Part shown: in pieces, positions 3,797 through 31,402 of the stretch
How the letters are laid out: every line of letters starts with the position of its first letter
Position numbering within the stretch: the first letter of the stretch is position 1
Virus record (IMG/VR): IMGVR_UViG_2740892210_000013
Strand: one strand, 5' to 3'
Source: a virus
Taxonomy: Duplodnaviria > Heunggongvirae > Uroviricota > Caudoviricetes
DNA length: 37,133 nucleotides
Position numbers and translations under genes: made by a program
The notes under the pieces: model-generated
Told to the model about the DNA's origin: nothing
What the model saw: only the letters and a program-made list of their open reading frames with translations
Database searches by the model: none

Positions 3797-3888
3797 CGAT
3801 ACAAATAAAACATCAAATTAAATAAGAAAACGTGAAAACCATCCGTATTAACGGAGGTATTCGCACACGTAAATAATGGAGATATAAA

Positions 3889-4305
3889 ATGAACGCAAAA
3901 GAAGAAGGCATTATCAACACATTAAAAAAAATATCAGAAGCGGAAGATGAAATGGCTAAAGATGCCGTGAAGCGTAGCCAACATATGGCAGCACTTCACG
4001 CACTGACCATCGCAAAAATCACCGCTGACGCAGCCAAAATTATTGAGGAACAGGGCAAAGAAATCGACACTCTTAAAACACAGTCAACAGTTGCAGCCAT
4101 GAATCCGTCCAGCATTGGACGCCGCATTTACATTCTTGGTTCGGCAATAATGACGCAATACACCATTATTGCCGAACTGCACGGCAAATACCTGATAACG
4201 CCTTACCACACAAAGGAGTCAGAGCTTCTGACAAATCTCCGCCTGATAGAACGCTCTCAAGCTGTATTCATTGATGACGCGCAACGTGCCGTATTTAACG
4301 CATAG
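3889..4305 (+). CDS. Hypothetical early protein (138 aa)
   Basis: ORF preceded by a GGAG-type RBS (taaataatGGAGatataaaATG). Confidence 0.5.
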   Translation: MNAKEEGIINTLKKISEAEDEMAKDAVKRSQHMAALHALTIAKITADAAKIIEEQGKEIDTLKTQSTVAAMNPSSIGRRIYILGSAIMTQYTIIAELHGKYLITPYHTKESELLTNLRLIERSQAVFIDDAQRAVFNA

Positions 4306-6088: not shown

Positions 6089-8911
6089 ATGACGGCAGAG
6101 TACATCAGGGACTGGCAACAACCGCGCCACGCAGTGGGACGTGAAGGAACGGGGATCCCCGTTCCTGAATCCGCGCTTTCCTCCTGGCTGGATGCCTACC
6201 GGGCAGAGAACGAGCGCCGCCAGGAAATGGCTGATGCGGCGTTCTCCGCCACGCCGCTGGGCAACCTGATTAATAAAAGCCTGGATGCACAGGAAAAACA
6301 GGACAAAACCATCACACTGGCAGGAGACGCCAGAAAACAGGTACGCGGTGCGGTGGATGAAGCCATGGCCTCGCTGCGCCTGCTGCCGTCCTATCTGCGC
6401 GATCCGCTTATTCGCCACCTCTCCTTCCTGCGCAAAAAACAGGAAGCCGATCGCCGGAAAGGCAAAAAGAGCTGGCAGGCTGAACGCTACGCGCGCGGAA
6501 CCCTGCGCAAAATATTCGAACGTCTGGACCGCACCGACCACCGCTGGCTGACACCGGGTTATCGCTCCCTTGCCGGACGCGAACGCCTGGATGATTTGCT
6601 TTACCTGCCGCAGCTCAACAAGCACCAGATACAGACGCTGGCCACCATGACGGCGGCGATGTTCAGCAGCACCTTCGAAAAACTCTGCGATGGCTTTGGC
6701 GCGACTGATGGCGAGCTGACCATGGATGTAACGCTGAAGGCGTATCAGATGCTGGCCCGCATGGCGTTACACCTGCACGCCATGCCTCCGCATTATGACG
6801 CACTGACAACAGACAAAGACCGGAGGAACGAACCGGACACGGAGCTGCTGCCGGGCGCAATCCTTCGCCTGACCTGTGCGGAATGGTGGAAACGCAAACT
6901 GTGGCTGTTACGTTGCGAGTGGCGGGAAGAACAACTCCGCGCCGCCTGTCTGGTTTCCAGAAAAACATCGCCCTATCTGAGCCAGGACGCGTTAAGCGAG
7001 TTTCGCGCACAGCGCGAGAAAACACGCGATTTCCTGAAAAGTTTCATGCTGGAAAACGAAGACGGGTTCACGATTGATCTCGAGACGGTGTATTACGCGG
7101 GAGTAAGTAACCCGGTTCACCGTAAGGCAGAAATGATGGCCACCATGAAGGGGCTGGAACTTCTGGCCGAAGCCCGTGGCGACAAAGCGGTGTTTCTGAC
7201 TGTCACCTGCCCGTCAAAATACCACGCCACAACAGAGAACGGTCATCCGAATCCCAAATGGAACGGGGCCACCATGCGCGACTCCAGCGATTACCTGGTT
7301 AACACGTTTTTTGCGGCGGTCCGCAAGAAACTGAACCGCGACGGCCTGCGCTGGTATGGCATCCGCACGGTGGAGCCTCACCATGACGGCACCGTGCACT
7401 GGCATATGATGGTCTTTGCTCATCCGGAAGAAATCGACACCATTGTGTCCCACACCCGCGATATTGCCATTCAGGAAGATCGTCACGAGCTGGGTGATGA
7501 TATTACCCCACGCTTTAAGGCGGAGTACGTCGACGGCTCAAAAGGCACACCGACCAGCTACATCGCCACCTACATCGGGAAAAACCTGGACAGCCGTGCC
7601 GTGGATGGCATCGACCCGAAAACGGGCAAGCCACGCGTTGACCACGAAACCGGAAAATCAATGGCCGAGAGCGTGGAACGCGCCATCGGCTGGGCGCGCC
7701 TTCACCGGGTCCGCCAGTTCCAGTTCTTTGGTATCCCCTCCCGTCAGGTGTGGCGTGAACTGCGCCGCCTTGCCAGCCAGATGGCTCGCAACCCGGAAGG
7801 ACCGCAACGGCTGAAGGATGACGCAATGGACGCGGTTCTTGCTGCCGCTGATGCCGGATGTTTTGCCACCTACATAGAGAAACAGGGCGGCGTACTTGTT
7901 CCACGCAAGGACTACCTGATTCGCACCGCCTACGACCTCGCCGATGAGCTGAACGATTACGGTGAACAGAGCGTACAGATTTACGGGATCTGGTCACCGC
8001 TCATCGGGGAGTCTTCCCGCGTATGCACGCATCCGGACAACTGGAAGCTGGTAAGACGCAAACCGGAAGCGGAAGACAGCGCCCGCGAAAATGGTTTTGA
8101 CCTTCAGGGCGGCCCTGCCGCACCTTGGACTCGTGGCAATAACTGTCCCCGTGTACAGGAAACGGACAACAACGGGACAGAACAGCCGGAAGAACGGCCA
8201 GCACCGTGGCCGCAGCTTCCTGACGGCGTTGACGTGAACGAATGGATGCGCTCACTGAAACGGCACGAACGCCGGGCGCTGATGCGTTCGCTGCGTGACA
8301 AACAGGCAAAAAACAGCAGTGATGAAATGCAGAGCTGGACACAGAGCCGCAAACAGCAGCGGCCTTTGCCTGATAACCACGAATTACTCGCTAAAGAATG
8401 GCGGGAATCTGCCGAATCTCTCGGCCTGCATATCGGTGAACAGCAGATGCAGCACCTGTTACGGGGCGGCAGCCTGTACGTTGACGGCAGCATCATTGCA
8501 CCGCAGGGATTTGAAATTGTACGCAAACCGGATACCCGCCCGGACAGCCGAATCACGCAGCTCTGGCAGCGCCTGAGCCGTAATCACGGCGTAAGCAGCA
8601 CGGAGATCCGCCATAACCCGGTCGCCAGCTATCTGGAACAGCTGGGGGCATCAGACCCCGAAGCCGCCGCACGTCTGGCATCCACACTTCAGCAGGACCA
8701 GAACACCATGAACCCCCCCGTTACCGTGCTTTCTGACATGCTGCGCGCCATCCGCGACGCAGAGCACGCACAGAGAATCAGTGAAACCACTGAACGTGCC
8801 CGCCGCAAAGCAGACCTGCTGCGGGGTGGCCTGACCAGTGGAAACAAAAAACAGACAGAAACGGGATTCACAAATCCCGTAAATGAGCAAAAAACGCGCC
8901 GCGATATATGA
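6089..8911 (+). CDS. A: P2 gpA-family replication initiation endonuclease (rolling-circle), 940 aa with a long C-terminal extension
   Basis: HWHMMVF (H-u-H-type) motif; large size and position after the early operon as in P2; longer than the P2 A size I recall. Confidence 0.8.
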   Translation: MTAEYIRDWQQPRHAVGREGTGIPVPESALSSWLDAYRAENERRQEMADAAFSATPLGNLINKSLDAQEKQDKTITLAGDARKQVRGAVDEAMASLRLLPSYLRDPLIRHLSFLRKKQEADRRKGKKSWQAERYARGTLRKIFERLDRTDHRWLTPGYRSLAGRERLDDLLYLPQLNKHQIQTLATMTAAMFSSTFEKLCDGFGATDGELTMDVTLKAYQMLARMALHLHAMPPHYDALTTDKDRRNEPDTELLPGAILRLTCAEWWKRKLWLLRCEWREEQLRAACLVSRKTSPYLSQDALSEFRAQREKTRDFLKSFMLENEDGFTIDLETVYYAGVSNPVHRKAEMMATMKGLELLAEARGDKAVFLTVTCPSKYHATTENGHPNPKWNGATMRDSSDYLVNTFFAAVRKKLNRDGLRWYGIRTVEPHHDGTVHWHMMVFAHPEEIDTIVSHTRDIAIQEDRHELGDDITPRFKAEYVDGSKGTPTSYIATYIGKNLDSRAVDGIDPKTGKPRVDHETGKSMAESVERAIGWARLHRVRQFQFFGIPSRQVWRELRRLASQMARNPEGPQRLKDDAMDAVLAAADAGCFATYIEKQGGVLVPRKDYLIRTAYDLADELNDYGEQSVQIYGIWSPLIGESSRVCTHPDNWKLVRRKPEAEDSARENGFDLQGGPAAPWTRGNNCPRVQETDNNGTEQPEERPAPWPQLPDGVDVNEWMRSLKRHERRALMRSLRDKQAKNSSDEMQSWTQSRKQQRPLPDNHELLAKEWRESAESLGLHIGEQQMQHLLRGGSLYVDGSIIAPQGFEIVRKPDTRPDSRITQLWQRLSRNHGVSSTEIRHNPVASYLEQLGASDPEAAARLASTLQQDQNTMNPPVTVLSDMLRAIRDAEHAQRISETTERARRKADLLRGGLTSGNKKQTETGFTNPVNEQKTRRDI

Positions 8912-8953
8912 AGCGCACACAAAACAGGCAAAAACGGGATTTCAGAATCCCGT
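8861..8953. repeat. Two 20-bp palindromes ACGGGATT-N4-AATCCCGT (8861-8880 and 8934-8953) within a ~35-bp direct repeat, spanning the A 3' end and the parM upstream region
   Basis: Read directly; candidate operator/centromere (parC-like) for the downstream parMR pair. Confidence 0.5.
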
Positions 8954-8987
8954 AAACGATTAATTAATCAACATAAGGAAAAGCGAC

Positions 8988-9947
8988 ATGAAAATTTGTA
9001 TCGACGACGGCTCCACCAACATCAAGCTGGCATGGACTGAGAATGGCGAACGCCGCAACGCCATCAGCCCGAACAGCTTCAAGTCGGAATGGTCTGCGCC
9101 GTTCGGTGGCATGCAGCCCGCGAACTACATGCTTGATGGCGTGCGCTATGGTTTTGATCCGGTCAGCGATCGCTTTGTCCAGACGACCGACACGCAATAC
9201 CAGTACAGCGATGTGAATGTAATCGCCATTCATCACGCGCTGGTCAAATCAGGCATCACGCCACAGGAGGTGGATGTGGTTGTCACCCTGCCACTGAGCG
9301 AGTATTTCGACACAAACGCACAGCCGGACATGGCCAACATCAACCGCAAAAAAGCGAACGTTATGCGCCCGGTGGAGTACCAGAACGGCGAAGCATTCAC
9401 TATCCGTAACGTGCGGGTTATGCCTGAATCCATTCCGGCTGGCTTTAAAGCACTGGCTGACATGAGTCCGTTTGAATCCCTGCTGATTGTGGATTTAGGC
9501 GGAACCACGCTGGATGTGGCAAAGGTTCAGGGGCAACTGGCAGGTATCAGCCAGGTGTTTTGCGATCCACACGTAGGCGTCTCCCTGATGGCCGGTGCCG
9601 TGCTGTCGGTGATGGCCGCTAACGGTATGCGTACCAGTCACCACATCGCCAATACCATTATCGAACATCGCCATGATGAAGCCTGGTTGCGCCAACACAT
9701 CCACAATGACGCGCATTACGCCAGCCTGATGGCGGTTATTCGTGAAAAGGAAGAAACACTGAAACAACGCGTGATCCGCGCGCTGGCGGGTTTTTCGGGT
9801 TACGGGCGGGTGATGGTTGTCGGTGGCGGGGCGGAGATTGTGGCACCCGCTATCCGCGAAGCCTGCGGAGTTAATGCGACTTTCATCGCGGACGGGGTGC
9901 CACAGTTTGCTCTGGTTAATGGGCTGTACGCAATGGACAAGGAGTAA
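8988..9947 (+). CDS. parM: ParM/StbA-like actin-type segregation ATPase
   Basis: N-terminus MKICIDDGSTNIKLAW, ISPNSFK and QYSDVNVIAIHHALVKSG closely match what I recall of plasmid R1 ParM; 319 aa. Confidence 0.8.
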   Translation: MKICIDDGSTNIKLAWTENGERRNAISPNSFKSEWSAPFGGMQPANYMLDGVRYGFDPVSDRFVQTTDTQYQYSDVNVIAIHHALVKSGITPQEVDVVVTLPLSEYFDTNAQPDMANINRKKANVMRPVEYQNGEAFTIRNVRVMPESIPAGFKALADMSPFESLLIVDLGGTTLDVAKVQGQLAGISQVFCDPHVGVSLMAGAVLSVMAANGMRTSHHIANTIIEHRHDEAWLRQHIHNDAHYASLMAVIREKEETLKQRVIRALAGFSGYGRVMVVGGGAEIVAPAIREACGVNATFIADGVPQFALVNGLYAMDKE

Positions 9948-9951
9948 ACCA

Positions 9952-10266
9952 ATGACGACACCAACCAGACGGATAAGTTTCTATCTGAAGCCAGTCGCCG
10001 TCAATAGTGAACGGGAGGCGTGTAATTACCTCGACAGCCTGCCAGCCTCTGAACGCAGCCGCGCGCAACGCGCGGCCTTTCTGGCCGGGCTGGCACTCAT
10101 AAAACGCGATCCTGCATTTGCCTATTGGTTGGCCGAATGGCCGGAAGAAGGAGCTGCGCCAGCCAAGAATAATATTCAGAGTAAATATGCCAGCACACCT
10201 GCCACCGGAAGCAATCACAGCACTAGCGAGATAAGAAAGAACATTCAGTCATTTTTCCCAGAGTGA
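9952..10266 (+). CDS. parR: ParR/StbB-like centromere-binding adaptor
   Basis: Internal ATG of ORF 9817..10266, 4 nt after the parM stop; RRISFYLKP... and DSLPASERSRAQRAAFLAGLALIKRDP resemble R1 ParR as I recall it. Confidence 0.6.
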   Translation: MTTPTRRISFYLKPVAVNSEREACNYLDSLPASERSRAQRAAFLAGLALIKRDPAFAYWLAEWPEEGAAPAKNNIQSKYASTPATGSNHSTSEIRKNIQSFFPE

Positions 10267-10285
10267 AAACAGGAGAGGAGCATCT

Positions 10286-10747
10286 ATGGCAACTATCCCC
10301 AAAAAATGGTTACAACGCAAAATTGCAGACCTTGAATCGTGTCGTGAAGACATCCCGTTTGGCCTTGATGAAAACGATCACAATATGTTAATCGCACTGA
10401 AAATCGCACTCACATCGCTGGAAGCAGAGGCAGTTATGTTCTGTATATCAGGACAAAATGTAGATTCAGAAGAACATGTATCAACCAGCAAAGCGGTTGT
10501 TGATGCCTGGGTTGAAGAATGGAATCAGGTTGACGGAAGTCCTGGCGAACCACTGTACAAAACTATGCCACTCTACTATCACGCTGCCTTGCCAGCGCCG
10601 GTAGTGCCGGAAGAAGCAACTCCGGAAAACGTAGAAATGCTCTCTGGCTATGTTTCCACATACAAATTAACCGATAGCGAGCGCGATATTGCTGCCGAAA
10701 TATGGAACGCCTGCCGCGCCGCTATGCTTCATGGGAAAGGAGAGTGA
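10286..10747 (+). CDS. Hypothetical, strongly acidic protein (153 aa)
   Basis: ORF with GGAG RBS; high Asp/Glu content; same operon as parMR. Confidence 0.5.
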   Translation: MATIPKKWLQRKIADLESCREDIPFGLDENDHNMLIALKIALTSLEAEAVMFCISGQNVDSEEHVSTSKAVVDAWVEEWNQVDGSPGEPLYKTMPLYYHAALPAPVVPEEATPENVEMLSGYVSTYKLTDSERDIAAEIWNACRAAMLHGKGE

Positions 10748-10748
10748 T

Positions 10749-11012
10749 ATGGCAACTTTAACAAAAAAAGAACGGGCATGGTTGAACGAATTACAGGACG
10801 TTCTTGATCGCTGCCCATCACCGAAAAAAATTGGTTTTTACACCATTGGCGATAAAAGCATTTACCTGTATGACCTGCGCCGCATGGATGAAATCATGGA
10901 GGCTCTTGATAATCGTTCGTCAATGGATTGGTGTGTTGCTGTCCATGATATGAATGCAGGGTTTGATGAAAAGATTTTGTTCCCCTCATCAGTTGAAAGC
11001 ACAGCAGGATAA
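10749..11012 (+). CDS. Hypothetical protein (87 aa)
   Basis: Internal ATG (MATLTKKERAW...) 1 nt after the upstream stop; followed by a terminator. Confidence 0.5.
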   Translation: MATLTKKERAWLNELQDVLDRCPSPKKIGFYTIGDKSIYLYDLRRMDEIMEALDNRSSMDWCVAVHDMNAGFDEKILFPSSVESTAG

Positions 11013-11046: not shown

Positions 11047-11073
11047 AAAGCGCCTCAGGGGCGCTTTTTGTTT
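11047..11073 (+). terminator. Intrinsic terminator (AAAGCGCC-TCAGG-GGCGC + T-run) ending the parMR operon
   Basis: GC stem-loop followed by TTTTTGTTT, read directly. Confidence 0.6.
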
Positions 11074-24698: not shown

Positions 24699-26710
24699 CA
24701 GCGAAATACTACGCCATTCTGACTAATCAGGGCGCGGAACGACTGGCTAACGCGACGATGCTCGGCAGTAAGCTGAATTTGACGCAAATGGCCGTTGGTG
24801 ATGCAAATGGTGTGTTACCAACACCAAACCCTGCACAAACAAAACTGATTAACCAGAAACGCATTGCACCGCTGAATCTTCTGAATGTTGACCCTAACAA
24901 TCAGAGCCAGATTATTGCGGAGCAAATCATCCCTGAAGACGAGGGAGGATTCTGGATCCGTGAGATTGGTCTTTATGATGATAAAGGTGTACTCATTGCG
25001 GTGGCAAACTGCCCGGAAACGTACAAACCGCAGTTGCAGGAAGGCAGTGGACGCACCCAGACTATCCGCATGATTCTGGTTGTCACGAACACCAAAGCCA
25101 TCACGCTGAAAATCGACCCGTCTGTGGTTCTGGCAACCCGCAAATATGTGGATGATAAAATCTCAAAGCACGAGCAGTCACGACGTCACCCGGACGCCTC
25201 GCTGACCGCAAAAGGCTTTGTTCAACTCAGTAGCGCCACTAACAGCGATTCTGAAACGCTGGCTGCAACGCCGAAAGCGGTTAAGGCCGCGTATGACCTT
25301 GCTAACGCAAAATATACCGCTCAGGACGCCACGACGGCACGAAAAGGCATTGTCCAGCTCAGTAGCGCCACCAACAGCGATTCAGAAACGCTGGCGGCAA
25401 CACCAAAGGCGGTAAAGGCAGCCTATGACCTTGCTAACGGGAAATATACCGCACAGGACGCCACGACGGCACAAAAAGGAATTGTCCAGCTCAGTAGTGC
25501 AACCAACAGCACATCTGAAACGCTTGCTGCAACACCGAAAGCAGTGAAAGCAGCTAATGACAATGCGAATGGTCGGGTACCTTCTGCCCGTAAGGTGAAT
25601 GGTAAGGCGCTTTCGGCGGATATAACACTGACGCCGAAAGATATTGGTACGCTTAACTCAACAACAATGTCATTCAGCGGTGGTGCTGGTTGGTTCAAAT
25701 TAGCAACGGTAACCATGCCACAGGCGAGTTCTGTTGTTTCAATTACGTTGATTGGTGGCGCTGGATTTAACGTCGGTTCACCTCAACAGGCAGGTATATC
25801 TGAACTTGTTTTGCGTGCAGGTAATGGTAATCCGAAGGGGATTACTGGTGCTTTATGGCAGCGCACATCGACAGGGTTTACAAATTTTGCCTGGGTCAAT
25901 ACATCTGGTGATACTTACGATATTTACGTTGCAATCGGAAATTATGCGACTGGTGTAAATATTCAATGGGATTATACCAGTAATGCCAGCGTGACGATTC
26001 ATACGTCACCAGCATATTCTGCTAATAAGCCGGAAGGGTTAACGGACGGTACAGTTTATTCACTCTATACGCCATCAGAGCAGTTTTATCCGCCTGGCGC
26101 ACCAATCCCGTGGCCATCGGATACCGTTCCGTCTGGTTATGCCCTGATGCAGGGGCAGACTTTTGACAAATCTGCATACCCAAAACTTGCAGCGGCTTAT
26201 CCGTCAGGCGTGATCCCTGATATGCGTGGCTGGACGATTAAGGGCAAACCCGCCAGTGGCCGGGCCGTATTGTCTCAGGAACAGGACGGCATTAAATCGC
26301 ACACCCACAGCGCCAGCGCATCCAGTACGGATTTGGGTACGAAAACCACATCGTCGTTTGATTACGGGACGAAAACAACCTCACTATTTGACTATGGGAC
26401 CAAAACTACCAGTAACGACGGGAGTCACACGCATTCAATACCAACATCAGATGGTGCAAACCAGGGGGGGAAAATTCCACTGACATCTGGGCGTCTGGCA
26501 ACTCAATATACATCAGCAACAACAGGTTCCTCTGGCTCACATTCTCATACTGTAGGTATTGGTTCTCATCAGCACACTGTCGGTATTGGTGCACACACGC
26601 ACTCCGTTGCGATTGGCTCACATGGACACACCATCACCGTTAACGCTGCTGGTAACGCGGAAAACACCGTCAAAAACATCGCATTTAACTATATTGTGAG
26701 GCTTGCATAA
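24695..26710 (+). CDS. H: Tail fiber protein gpH with internal tandem repeats and His-rich C-terminal receptor-binding region
   Basis: N-terminal ~170 aa and the repeated [43 protein letters not shown] unit match P2 H as I recall it; C-terminal [33 protein letters not shown] repeats. Confidence 0.9.
25211..25570 (+). repeat. About 2.8 tandem copies of a 129-bp (43-aa) repeat inside H
   Basis: Amino-acid identical units with synonymous nucleotide differences, read directly. Confidence 0.8.
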
Positions 26711-28561: not shown

Positions 28562-31402
28562 TCAATCTTTATCGTAAAAACTGCCACGCCCGGCACGGGC
28601 GCGCCGTTCCATCTCTGCCCTGACCATTTCACCGACCAGTTTCGCCAGTTCGCGGGGATTCTGCGTAACAACGTTATGCAGATGAACATGAATTTCACCG
28701 CAAAATCCGGAGACAGCAGGCTCCCGGTTACGGGAAGTTGCAGGAACTGATGCCACTGGCGATCGTATGGCCTCCGCCACCGGGCGGGAGCTGGCCGCAA
28801 CAACAGGGACCAGCGCCGGAGGCAGCGGAGCCGAGACCACGGGTGTGATATTAATTGCGGGGGGCTTACTGACCTGCGCAATCTTCTGCTCCTGCCACTC
28901 CCCACGAACAGCAAGTGCGCGGGGCAGGTTCTTAAAGACAATATCGCCGGGGCCAATGCGTTTTTTCGTCTCATCAACCAGCTTACCTGTGTTATCAGCA
29001 ATTTTGCTGAGTCTGCGTAGCGTCCCGGTATTGCTGTCTGTGAGCGGTTTGTTGTCTTTGGGTTTATCACCTCCGGTGCCATTGCCATTTTCCACAGGCT
29101 TCGGCGGATTGATTTTCGCCAGGTCCCCCTGAAGCAAGGCAACCTTGTCCTGAAGAATGGCCGCACGCTGTGCGTCTTCGATTTTCTTGCGCGCCCTTTC
29201 AGCTTCATCCGGAAGGACGCCAAGTTTTTCAAGTATCCACGCCAGCGTATCCAGTAGCATTTTTGCAGGTGTCAGAACAAGCTGTAACGCACCGCCAAGA
29301 ACGTTACCGAATATCTCGCCAGCACTGGTACATTTATCCAGCGTTTCCTTACTGGACTCCATCGGTGACAGCAGCGATTTAAACCAGTTAAACACCTGGC
29401 TGATCCCGCTTCCGATTGCGTCAAAAACAGGGCCAAACCGTTCAAAGGTTTCGCGCAACGGAGCCAGCCGTTCCATAATCCCACTGAACACCCCTGCATA
29501 AAACGCCTTGATGGGTTCCCAGTATTTCCAGATGAGAACCGCCGCAGCCACAAACGCAGCAGCAATCAATCCGACCGGACTGAACAGCGCCCCGATAGCG
29601 CCTCCCAGTAACGAAATGGAACCCGTCACCATTCCCCATAATGCAGGCAGAACCCTGACAACATTCAATGATCCGGTCAGGAGGGAAAAACCAAGACGCA
29701 GTTTTGCCAGTGGGCCAGCAAGCACACCAATAGCCAGCGACAACGAGCCTATGGTTGCAGTCATTGCCAGCAGAGCACCGCCTGCAACCAGTAGCTGGCG
29801 CGTCAGTGCCGGATGGGCCTGCGCCAGCGCCGTCACCTTCGATACCACCCGCGTGAGCCACTGCGTGACAGAACGCAGCGGACCGTCAATCAGATCTGCA
29901 ATGCGGATGCGCAACCCTTCCCATGCACTGCCGAGTGATTTCAGATCGCCGTCAAGGTTGTTGGCCATAACCTTTGCTGTGCGTTCAGCCTCACCGCGCG
30001 CGCCTTCAAGTTCTTTTCTCAGTTTGGGTAAGGAGCCGTCACCTGCCGCATCAACGAGGGCCATAAATGATGTGAAAGCCTCTTCTCCGGCAATGTCCTT
30101 AAAGAACGATACCCGGTCAACTTCCCCGTATTTGCGGGTGGCTTTATAAAGGTCAGCCAGCAGATCTTCCATCGGGCGCATTTTGCCGTTCGCGTCAGAG
30201 ACGGACACGCCCAGCTCTTTCAGCGCCTCTGCTGCTGCCTTTGGCGGTGATGCCAGACGAGCCAGGCTGGCACGCATTGCCGTCCCGGCATCACTCCCTC
30301 TGATACCCATATTCGCCAGCACGCCAGCCATCGCTGCGGCCTGCTCCAGCGATATTCCCAGCTTACCCGCCACCGGACCGGCATATTTCATGGTTTCGCC
30401 CAGTGCGCGAAGGTCAGTGTTGGTACGGGTAAACGCTGCAGTGAGTGTGTCACCGACCCGGTCCATCTGGTCAGCAGAAAGGCCGAACTGCGTCAGGATA
30501 TTTGAGCCAATATCCGCCGTCTCGCCGAGATCCATACCGCCAGCCGTTGCCATGCTCAACACGCCGGGAAGCGCAGCCTGAATGGCCTGCGGTGTGAAGC
30601 CAGCCATTGCAAGAAATGCCTGCCCACTGGCGGCATCGCCTGCGGTGAACTGCGTTTCAGAGCCAAGTTTTAACGCCTGCTCACGCAGCGCCTTAAACTG
30701 CGGGCTGTTCTGGTCGATTCGCGTCAGCGCCTGAACGCGGGACATCTCTTTCCCGAACCCGATTGCGGGCTGCAAAAAACGCCCGGCAGCATAGCCGCCC
30801 GCCGCTGCCGCACCAATTGCCAGTACACCACCTGTTTTCAGTTTTCCCGCTGTTTCCTGCGCACGCGAATACCGCTCACGCGCCCGCGTTACACGCGCAA
30901 GCGCCTGCCGTTCGCGTTCAAGCTGGTTGTTGTACTGTTCGGTGCGCCTGATGGCCTGTTGAATGGTGTTATCGCTGCCTGTCAGGGAAATGCCGTGGCG
31001 TTTCAGCTCTCCGCCAAGCTCCCGCATTTTCTGAATTTCCCGTGTGCGCGATTCATTCAGGCGTTCAAGCCGGGTGCTTAACTGCTGCATCAGCTTTTGT
31101 TGCTTTTCGCTGAGCACTGTACCCGTGCGTTGTAACTGATTAAGGGCGTTAAGCTGGCGTCGTGCTTTCACGATACCCGCATCCGCTTTACTGACAGCGT
31201 CGCGGGCGCGCTCAAATGAACGCGCCTGACGCTCGAGATTTTTGATCGCCCCCTGCGTTCGCTGGATGGAGTCACCAAACTGCCCCATCAGGCGGCGGGC
31301 GTTTTCGGCAGGCCGGGTCAGCCTGTCAACGGCGCTGAAAGCGACCCGGATATCAAGAGTCTTCATTGTCTGCATTCCCGCTGCGAAGTGCCGCCCGCTC
31401 AC
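28562..31402 (-). CDS. T: Tail tape measure protein gpT (start may be internal, e.g. MQTMKTLD...)
   Basis: 946 aa, Ala/Gly-rich with coiled-coil and transmembrane-like segments; between E/E' and U. Confidence 0.85.
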   Translation of the reverse strand: MSGRHFAAGMQTMKTLDIRVAFSAVDRLTRPAENARRLMGQFGDSIQRTQGAIKNLERQARSFERARDAVSKADAGIVKARRQLNALNQLQRTGTVLSEKQQKLMQQLSTRLERLNESRTREIQKMRELGGELKRHGISLTGSDNTIQQAIRRTEQYNNQLERERQALARVTRARERYSRAQETAGKLKTGGVLAIGAAAAGGYAAGRFLQPAIGFGKEMSRVQALTRIDQNSPQFKALREQALKLGSETQFTAGDAASGQAFLAMAGFTPQAIQAALPGVLSMATAGGMDLGETADIGSNILTQFGLSADQMDRVGDTLTAAFTRTNTDLRALGETMKYAGPVAGKLGISLEQAAAMAGVLANMGIRGSDAGTAMRASLARLASPPKAAAEALKELGVSVSDANGKMRPMEDLLADLYKATRKYGEVDRVSFFKDIAGEEAFTSFMALVDAAGDGSLPKLRKELEGARGEAERTAKVMANNLDGDLKSLGSAWEGLRIRIADLIDGPLRSVTQWLTRVVSKVTALAQAHPALTRQLLVAGGALLAMTATIGSLSLAIGVLAGPLAKLRLGFSLLTGSLNVVRVLPALWGMVTGSISLLGGAIGALFSPVGLIAAAFVAAAVLIWKYWEPIKAFYAGVFSGIMERLAPLRETFERFGPVFDAIGSGISQVFNWFKSLLSPMESSKETLDKCTSAGEIFGNVLGGALQLVLTPAKMLLDTLAWILEKLGVLPDEAERARKKIEDAQRAAILQDKVALLQGDLAKINPPKPVENGNGTGGDKPKDNKPLTDSNTGTLRRLSKIADNTGKLVDETKKRIGPGDIVFKNLPRALAVRGEWQEQKIAQVSKPPAINITPVVSAPLPPALVPVVAASSRPVAEAIRSPVASVPATSRNREPAVSGFCGEIHVHLHNVVTQNPRELAKLVGEMVRAEMERRARAGRGSFYDKD

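Follow-up and report, generated by a model that had tools for sequence, protein, structure and literature searches.

Paired palindromes as a candidate parC of the ParMRC cassette in P88-like prophages

In every characterised type II partition system the centromere, parC, overlaps the parM promoter and is found directly upstream of that gene (PMC5016525, PMC9426499), and according to a 2022 paper all ParR proteins characterised by then bind direct repeats (PMC9426499). Here we describe the corresponding region in a 37,133-nt stretch of viral DNA (IMG/VR record IMGVR_UViG_2740892210_000013, hereafter the window), a P88-like integrated prophage (genus Xuanwuvirus, Peduoviridae, P2-like) of Escherichia coli that is 95-98% identical at the nucleotide level to phages P88, 520873 and P884B11 and to Citrobacter phage Shae_phiSM. 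Two 20-bp palindromes precede its parM gene, and comparison of their sequences and positions across prophages suggests that they are probably the parC centromere/operator of a type II (ParMRC) cassette, made of inverted half-sites that ParR would bind.

Similar to the parC of plasmids R1 and R100, the cis site here is followed by parM and then parR, lies directly upstream of parM and falls into two blocks, and the R1-type region has a secondary autocorrelation peak at 72-73 bp. The proteins are also related, with ParM 47% identical and ParR 43% identical over its N-terminal 63 residues. However, R1 has ten 11-bp direct iterons whereas we find only two 20-bp palindromes, and the ParR strand residues that alternate with hydrophobic I, F and L differ (RRTIAFKL in R1, TRRISFYL here). 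Moreover, the R1 replicon is a plasmid and ours an integrated phage. The cis site of the window thus does not have the R1-type tandem-iteron architecture.

Other systems offer partial likenesses. In pSK41 of Staphylococcus aureus ParR also uses a 20-bp binding unit (PMC9426499), and ParR dimers have been described as sitting in pairs along a contiguous array (PMC5016525), but those repeats are contiguous, tandem and direct, whereas the units here are separated and internally palindromic, and at the sequence level we detected no relationship between pSK41 parC and the sites in the window. A 2025 paper describes a chromosomal ParCMR system of Clostridium botulinum in which cParR binds three palindromic repeats in electrophoretic mobility shift assays (PMC12270681), so that a palindromic parC has one distant precedent. 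This cparC belongs to a distant Firmicute and has three repeats rather than two, and the source places it immediately upstream of the ParMR genes in its text and after cParR in its Figure 5 legend, without mention of a prophage where it describes the locus. Ribbon-helix-helix dimers of type Ib systems (omega of pSM19035, ParG of TP228) bind direct and inverted short repeats through comparable contacts (PMC5016525), which indicates that an adaptor of this fold can read inverted half-sites, although their partner is a ParA Walker ATPase instead of ParM, their heptad or tetramer boxes form long arrays, and no sequence homology links them to ParR. Finally, prophage CGP3 of Corynebacterium glutamicum combines an actin-like filament, a DNA-binding adaptor and cis sites (AlpC, AlpA and alpS) in an integrated element, and this set has been implicated in viral DNA transport and replication, not in plasmid inheritance (PMC5539076). 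By analogy AlpAC/alpS would be the nearest functional counterpart that we found and could serve as a model for the role of ParMRC here, but host phylum and phage type differ and no homology of AlpA to ParR (PF10784) is reported (PMC5539076). Set beside these systems, the palindromic cis site would be a new architectural variant of the known ParMRC system.

The palindrome pair and its partition genes

The arms of site 1 lie at 8861-8868 and 8873-8880 around the spacer CACA, and those of site 2 at 8934-8941 and 8946-8953 around TCAG, just as a preliminary description of this DNA had them (Table 1). That description also placed site 1 in the 3' end of gene A and site 2 upstream of parM, which is correct, and in the promoter region of parM, which we can retain only tentatively. 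It further recognised a direct repeat around the palindromes; the repeat is real, with copies 81% identical and 73 bp apart from start to start, but it measures 43 nt and not about 35 bp. Between A and parM there is a gap of 76 bp (8912-8987). If two mismatches at most are tolerated, the pattern ACGGGATT-N4-AATCCCGT has just two matches in the window, while two matches were seen in 0 of 100 dinucleotide-preserving shuffles (shuffle mean 0.02), and a shift of 73 bp gives the sole significant autocorrelation peak of the region (z 5.8-7.1; 8840-8987). Considering that parC lies upstream of parM in the characterised systems, the fact that the palindromes are the only significant repeats there supports their identification as parC. 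We also noticed a third CGGG-N10-CCCG match far from parM (CGGGACATCTCTTTCCCG, 30738-30755); about 0.9 such matches are expected by chance in the window, and it is probably fortuitous.

The preliminary description contrasted the palindromes with the direct iterons of R1, and the contrast holds. The autocorrelation z at an 11-bp shift is 4.3 in the R1-type region, 4.2 in phage-plasmid D6 and 3.9 in Klebsiella, whereas the window's parC region has no periodicity at 10-11 bp (z -1.6 and 0.0). Tandem Repeats Finder returned no array in or near the parC region and no iteron array elsewhere in the window. Cryptic R1-like iterons suggested by eye (AAAC[AG]G at about 10-bp spacing) were accordingly dropped, for lack of that periodicity. 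A kinship of the half-sites with the R1 iteron AAACCCAAAAAC was likewise rejected, since in the window, as in Plesiomonas, the 11-mer matches do not rise above the background of A-rich DNA (fractions 0.79 and 0.47). Hafnia has an exact 12-mer match to the R1 iteron, and its 11-mer matches at 9 or more of 11 positions exceed the simulations (fraction 0.04); we claim no kinship from this.

The two genes downstream of the sites are, by their sequences, a complete type II partition gene pair. The two Pfam domains of ParM together span its full length, and the protein is 47-48% identical to the ParM of R1-type plasmids and of D6. ParR matches the ParR of pB171 (PDB 2jd3) over residues 6-61 (E 0.004), and is laid out as a β-strand (TRRISFYLKP), a hypervariable linker and a conserved C-terminal KNIQxFFPE segment, whose residue N97 is invariant as far as R1 and D6. 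An AlphaFold2 model of the monomer (pLDDT 70) has an extended N-terminus and helices at 14-29, 32-52, 54-61 and 90-101, with no secondary structure across residues 62-89 and pLDDT below 50 at 76-88. Searched against the PDB with Foldseek this monomer model had no significant match, as is perhaps expected for one half of an intertwined dimer.

Table 1. Features of the locus and of its surroundings (window coordinates unless given relative to the parM ATG)
Feature	Position	Strand	Remarks
Site 1, 20-bp palindrome ACGGGATTcacaAATCCCGT	8861..8880		core CGGGA-N8-TCCCG; within the last 17 codons of gene A
Site 2, 20-bp palindrome ACGGGATTtcagAATCCCGT	8934..8953		in the A-parM intergenic gap; ends 34 bp before the parM ATG
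Direct repeat, copy 1 (43 nt)	8844..8886	+	embeds site 1; A-rich left flank
Direct repeat, copy 2 (43 nt)	8917..8959	+	embeds site 2
ATTAATTAAT block	8959..8968	+	contains ATTAAT; putative -10 element of a parM promoter
Replication gene A	6089..8911		Pfam Phage_GPA, E 2e-131
parM, actin-like segregation ATPase (319 aa)	8988..9947	+	Pfam StbA_N, E 2.7e-82; ParM C-terminal domain, E 1.6e-67
parR, ribbon-helix-helix adaptor (104 aa)	9952..10266	+	PF10784, E 3.8e-25
GGG-N10-CCC pair, window (E. coli)	-125 / -52 from parM ATG		spacing 73 bp
GGG-N10-CCC pair, Hafnia (L065)	-128 / -55 from parM ATG		spacing 73 bp
GGG-N10-CCC pair, Plesiomonas (L067)	-131 / -59 from parM ATG		spacing 72 bp
Homologue of the P2-type ori (A nick site), GCCGCACCTTGGACTCGTGGCAATAACTGT	~8112-8147		inside A; compare GCCGCGCCTCGGAGTCCTGTCAATAACTGT, annotated in fiAA91-ss (P2-group)
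Strong bidirectional intrinsic terminator AAAGCGCCtcaGGGGCGCTTT	11047-11067		flanked by T-runs; between the rightward parMR/accessory block and the leftward portal gene
Second terminator	11194-11176	-	same interval

Conservation of the sites in close and distant relatives

Close relatives taken alone do not discriminate between readings, as the whole region is conserved in them at about 97% identity, and only the distant loci were informative. A profile search of contigs with the ParR alignment returned seven loci and a ParR protein search the same clade only, the intermediates being reached via ParM. The order A-parM-parR-portal was found in P2-like prophages of Hafnia (L065), Plesiomonas (L067), Serratia (L068 and L070) and Enterobacter (L069 and L074), with ParM 54-62% identical to that of the window, and A-parM-parR synteny spans seven genera (Escherichia, Salmonella, Citrobacter, Hafnia, Plesiomonas, Serratia and Enterobacter). 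The Hafnia and Plesiomonas prophages have 62% identity in ParM and 43-46% in ParR, and the ParR β-strand TRR[IV]SFYL is common to them and the window. Their DNA upstream of parM is nearly unalignable with that of E. coli, and in it we find the same pair of GGG-N10-CCC motifs at close to the same distances from parM (Table 1), a pair that arises in only 0-1 of 20,000 first-order Markov simulations of each 160-nt upstream region. Apart from ATTAAT and the ATG, the multi-base blocks that stay invariant when E. coli, Salmonella, Hafnia and Plesiomonas are aligned all belong to the two sites: GGGA and CCC in site 1, CGGG and CCC in site 2. Site 2 reads CGGG-N10-CCC throughout, and in both Hafnia (-128) and Plesiomonas (-131) the core of site 1 takes the form GGGA-N8-ACCC. 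The eight bases separating the cores are unconserved across lineages. The preliminary description had proposed to look for the palindromes in related prophages, and this comparison shows their cores, the 72-73-bp spacing and the distance to parM kept in three lineages.

These same loci bear on whether the palindromes act as nucleic-acid hairpins, either minus-strand terminators against antisense transcription into A or plus-strand mRNA stem-loops for stability or processing between A and parM. A consensus scan does flag each palindrome as resembling a minus-strand terminator (8-bp stem, T-rich tail), and they fold at -11 to -12 kcal/mol (plus-strand z -3.2 and -4.5). However, in Plesiomonas only a 4-bp CGGG/CCCG complement is left around a 10-nt spacer, so that hairpin potential is lost and the motif kept, and in Hafnia the T-tail is absent while motif, spacing and position are kept. 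Among close relatives the variants GGGACT/AATCCC and GGGATT/AACCCC and the one-arm TCCTG break the pairing without compensation. In addition there is no plus-strand T-run, Rfam has no relevant match, and the two terminators at 11047-11067, much the stronger, and 11194-11176 (Table 1) already separate the convergent late (portal) operon, which makes an antisense-terminator role unnecessary. Intrinsic termination on the minus strand was therefore rejected despite the match to the consensus, and we regard hairpins of either kind as very improbable. That the cores are kept while spacers, coding context and hairpin potential are lost fits a double-stranded protein site tied to parMR.

Which protein would then read the sites? 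One could think of A, with the palindromes as accessory origin sites, of a phage regulator (C, Cox or Ogr) or of a host factor, considering that site 1 lies inside gene A and that the origins of the P2 family also lie inside A. The preliminary description had likewise allowed for a replication-protein site. This alternative has lost ground, as a homologue of the P2 nick site lies elsewhere, about 720 bp upstream (Table 1), which led us to discard the palindromes as the nick site itself, and as the sites track parM rather than the tail of A. Ahead of parM, E. coli has a 144-aa extension of A, Hafnia has a separate ORF of 167 aa, and the A of Plesiomonas is shorter; no protein similarity was detected among the three tails, and the distance to parM stays fixed while the preceding ORF changes identity. 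In one close relative, L045 (IMGVR_UViG_2630968558_000012), A stops 18 codons early and site 1 has become intergenic yet is retained. The unrelated upstream ORFs and this early stop indicate that the sites follow parM and the ParR β-strand, not the upstream protein, a pattern that accessory binding by A, though conceivable, would leave unexplained. Moreover, the closest A homologues that come without parMR, those of SEN8 and a Klebsiella phage (about 42% identical), lack the extension and with it this region, the alignment ending at residue 796. As for the phage regulators, the palindrome motif is unlike the TGT-N12-ACA Ogr sites and the Cox boxes known from P2. On balance we consider a site for another protein to be distinctly unlikely. 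The extension itself (8477-8911) is lineage-specific and has no Pfam match.

Lineages whose ParR has another β-strand carry other repeats upstream of parM. In the Serratia and Enterobacter prophages (strand NRKISFYL; L068 at 3870-3990, L069, L070 and L074) we find CGGGAACGAAATAGAAAAAT / ATTTTTCTATTTCGTTCCC, an inverted repeat of 19-20 bp whose arms are separated by about 26-28 bp, together with a GCCGnTTAAACGGC palindrome. Their left flank GCAAAAACGGGA is common to site 2 of the window, and the left flank of repeat copy 2, AACAGGCAAAAACGGGA, is found also in Serratia L068. Direct iterons of 11 bp in two blocks occur in the R1/R100-type locus L053 (strand RRTIAFKL), in phage-plasmid D6 (L054) and in Klebsiella (L059-61), the latter two with the strand R[KR]KV[ML]IYL, and by inspection the Pantoea plasmid L071 (strand RRKILFYI) has such a two-block arrangement too. 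Secondary autocorrelation peaks at 72-74 bp (z 2.3-2.8) were seen in L053 (1360-1530), L054 (2290-2500) and L059 (3835-4034); they match the 73-bp spacing in the window, which hints at a geometric constraint shared between the two blocks of parC.

Our set of close relatives comprised 49 IMG/VR loci and several GenBank phages, with 47 distinct upstream sequences. Both palindromes are present in every one of these loci, the most divergent being ACGGGATTTGCAAACCCCGT and CCGGGGTTTCTGAATCCCGA of L045, and the site 1 core is retained across the 47 distinct P88-like sequences. The mean minor-allele count per column is 0.8 in the half-site cores (CGGGA and TCCCG), as against 3.75 in the spacers within the palindromes and 1.6-2.4 at third codon positions of parM and A. 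An exact scan of IMG/VR for CGGGATT-N4-AATCCCG returned at least 120 loci. Among the matches listed, 77 lie 53 and/or 125-126 bp upstream of a parM start and paired matches occur only upstream of parM; the other 43 listed are single, in stored loci without parM and in some cases at contig ends, and are consistent with chance, as judged without a formal estimate. One P88-like locus, with ParM 97% identical to that of the window, comes from a contig labelled Vagococcus sp. WN89Y, a Gram-positive (L056), and this assembly is probably contaminated or mislabelled.

ParM is about 98% identical throughout the close relatives and ParR ranges from 50 to 100%, with TRRISFYLKP and KNIQxFFPE invariant and the linker hypervariable. 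In the E. coli loci the type of ParR allele did not vary consistently with the palindrome variants, as expected given the invariant β-strand. The variability of ParR, together with the lack of an obvious job for plasmid-type partition in an integrated prophage, could be taken to mean that the cassette is a non-functional relic of a plasmid captured by the phage and now decaying. We hold this to be extremely unlikely, as the β-strand and C-terminal tail of ParR do not vary, A-parM-parR synteny extends over the seven genera, and the dN/dS of parM against its relatives is 0.07-0.14, a sign of strong purifying selection and thus of a cassette that is maintained. The locus is also intact in many hosts, with the parC-parM junction (query 8780-9080) present in 1304 of 5426 complete E. 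coli genomes (~24%), O104:H4 and O157:H7 strains included.

Within parR a sharp mosaic junction falls near codon ~16. In 100-nt bins, parC, parM and the first ~15 codons of parR, β-strand included, are 87-100% identical to P88 and to a Salmonella relative, and from ~10,000 onward identity drops to 67-71% and ~49%, respectively. Gene A is 88-100% identical to that of P88 and far less so to that of the Salmonella relative, with identity below 50% at the 5' end of the gene. In parR, dS over the N-terminal 62 codons is 0.75-0.82, compared with 0.06-0.19 for parM. The junction and the contrast in dS suggest that the presumed DNA-reading strand stays tied to parC, while the remainder of ParR and the accessory genes downstream (9990-11000) are swapped. 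Away from this locus, the late-gene part of the prophage contains a 132-bp tandem repeat (25210-25561; 2.7 copies, 85% identity).

A possible two-site segrosome

Taken together, the comparative evidence favours the central idea of the preliminary description, a centromere or operator unlike that of R1, in that the cores, their spacing and their distance to parM are kept in three lineages along with the TRR[IV]SFYL strand. Each palindrome would offer two inverted half-sites, CGGGA and TCCCG, with centres 13 bp apart, and two ParR dimers may occupy the 20 bp, each placing its β-ribbon (TRRISFYLKP) in the major groove of one half-site. At 73 bp, or about seven helical turns, the two palindromes face the same side of the DNA and could cooperate, with bound ParR bridging or wrapping the A-rich DNA between them into a small segrosome whose clustered C-terminal tails (KNIQxFFPE) would capture the ends of ParM filaments. 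As site 2 adjoins the ATTAAT box, occupancy by ParR would also be expected to repress parMR, as in R1. The sequences establish where the sites lie, their significance and their conservation across genera, along with the nature of parM and parR, the purifying selection on them and the absence of 11-bp iterons. Binding by ParR, its stoichiometry, segrosome formation, autoregulation and the role in segregation are what we infer here, and the mechanism rests on established knowledge of type II systems (PMC5016525, PMC9426499).

Several observations weigh against a parC of this kind. A sigma-70 consensus scan of 8400-10400 found no promoter, and parMR may be co-transcribed with A, which leaves the operator role weakly anchored; -35 candidates picked manually upstream of ATTAAT were poor and unconserved and were set aside, so that the promoter assignment is tentative. 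Only four specific half-sites are visible as compared with the 10 iterons of R1, which does not obviously support a full ring of ParR, and the 13-bp half-site spacing is without precedent in a characterised ParR. The sites are not strictly conserved, as about one in four of the distinct E. coli sequences has TCCTG for the right half of site 2. Furthermore, in complete E. coli genomes the junction is found at 1441 chromosomal places and 2 on plasmids, with at most three copies per genome, and an integrated element leaves no obvious target of segregation. Our literature search returned no paper on the parMRC of P88-like phages and no binding, footprint, reporter or stability experiment.

The small number of half-sites and the integrated state of the element, along with the position of site 2 next to the conserved ATTAAT box, would also suit palindromes that are ParR operators only, which autoregulate parMR and have no centromere function, the cassette having some other role (for example ParM positioning replicating phage DNA via another site) or none in segregation. 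However, every type II system characterised uses the same DNA as operator and as centromere (PMC5016525), and elsewhere a single repeat can be enough for ParR to bind (PMC9426499). The window holds no further repeat array, and the conserved, putatively ParM-binding tail of ParR argues that it still couples DNA to ParM. We therefore think it unlikely that the sites serve as operators alone. For the palindromes as parC, at present we can only speculate that a minimal centromere of four half-sites suffices for ParM-driven movement, and that the prophage uses it not for plasmid maintenance but to position or separate excised and replicating phage genomes, or else to secure a plasmid-like state transiently, in establishment or induction. 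As part of the same tentative proposal, the mosaic junction would let the remainder of ParR diversify between co-resident prophages without parting the DNA-reading element from its site.

Models of the segrosome as a ring or solenoid rest on tandem iterons. The system described here is small (~1.45 kb), resides in a tractable host and is directly testable. If our interpretation is correct, a natural and widespread ParMRC with a two-palindrome cis site would show the minimum number of ParR contacts, and their orientation, that make a segrosome or operator. A further question is what use an integrating phage has for an actin-type partition machine, and here the only comparable case that we found is AlpAC of the Corynebacterium prophage.

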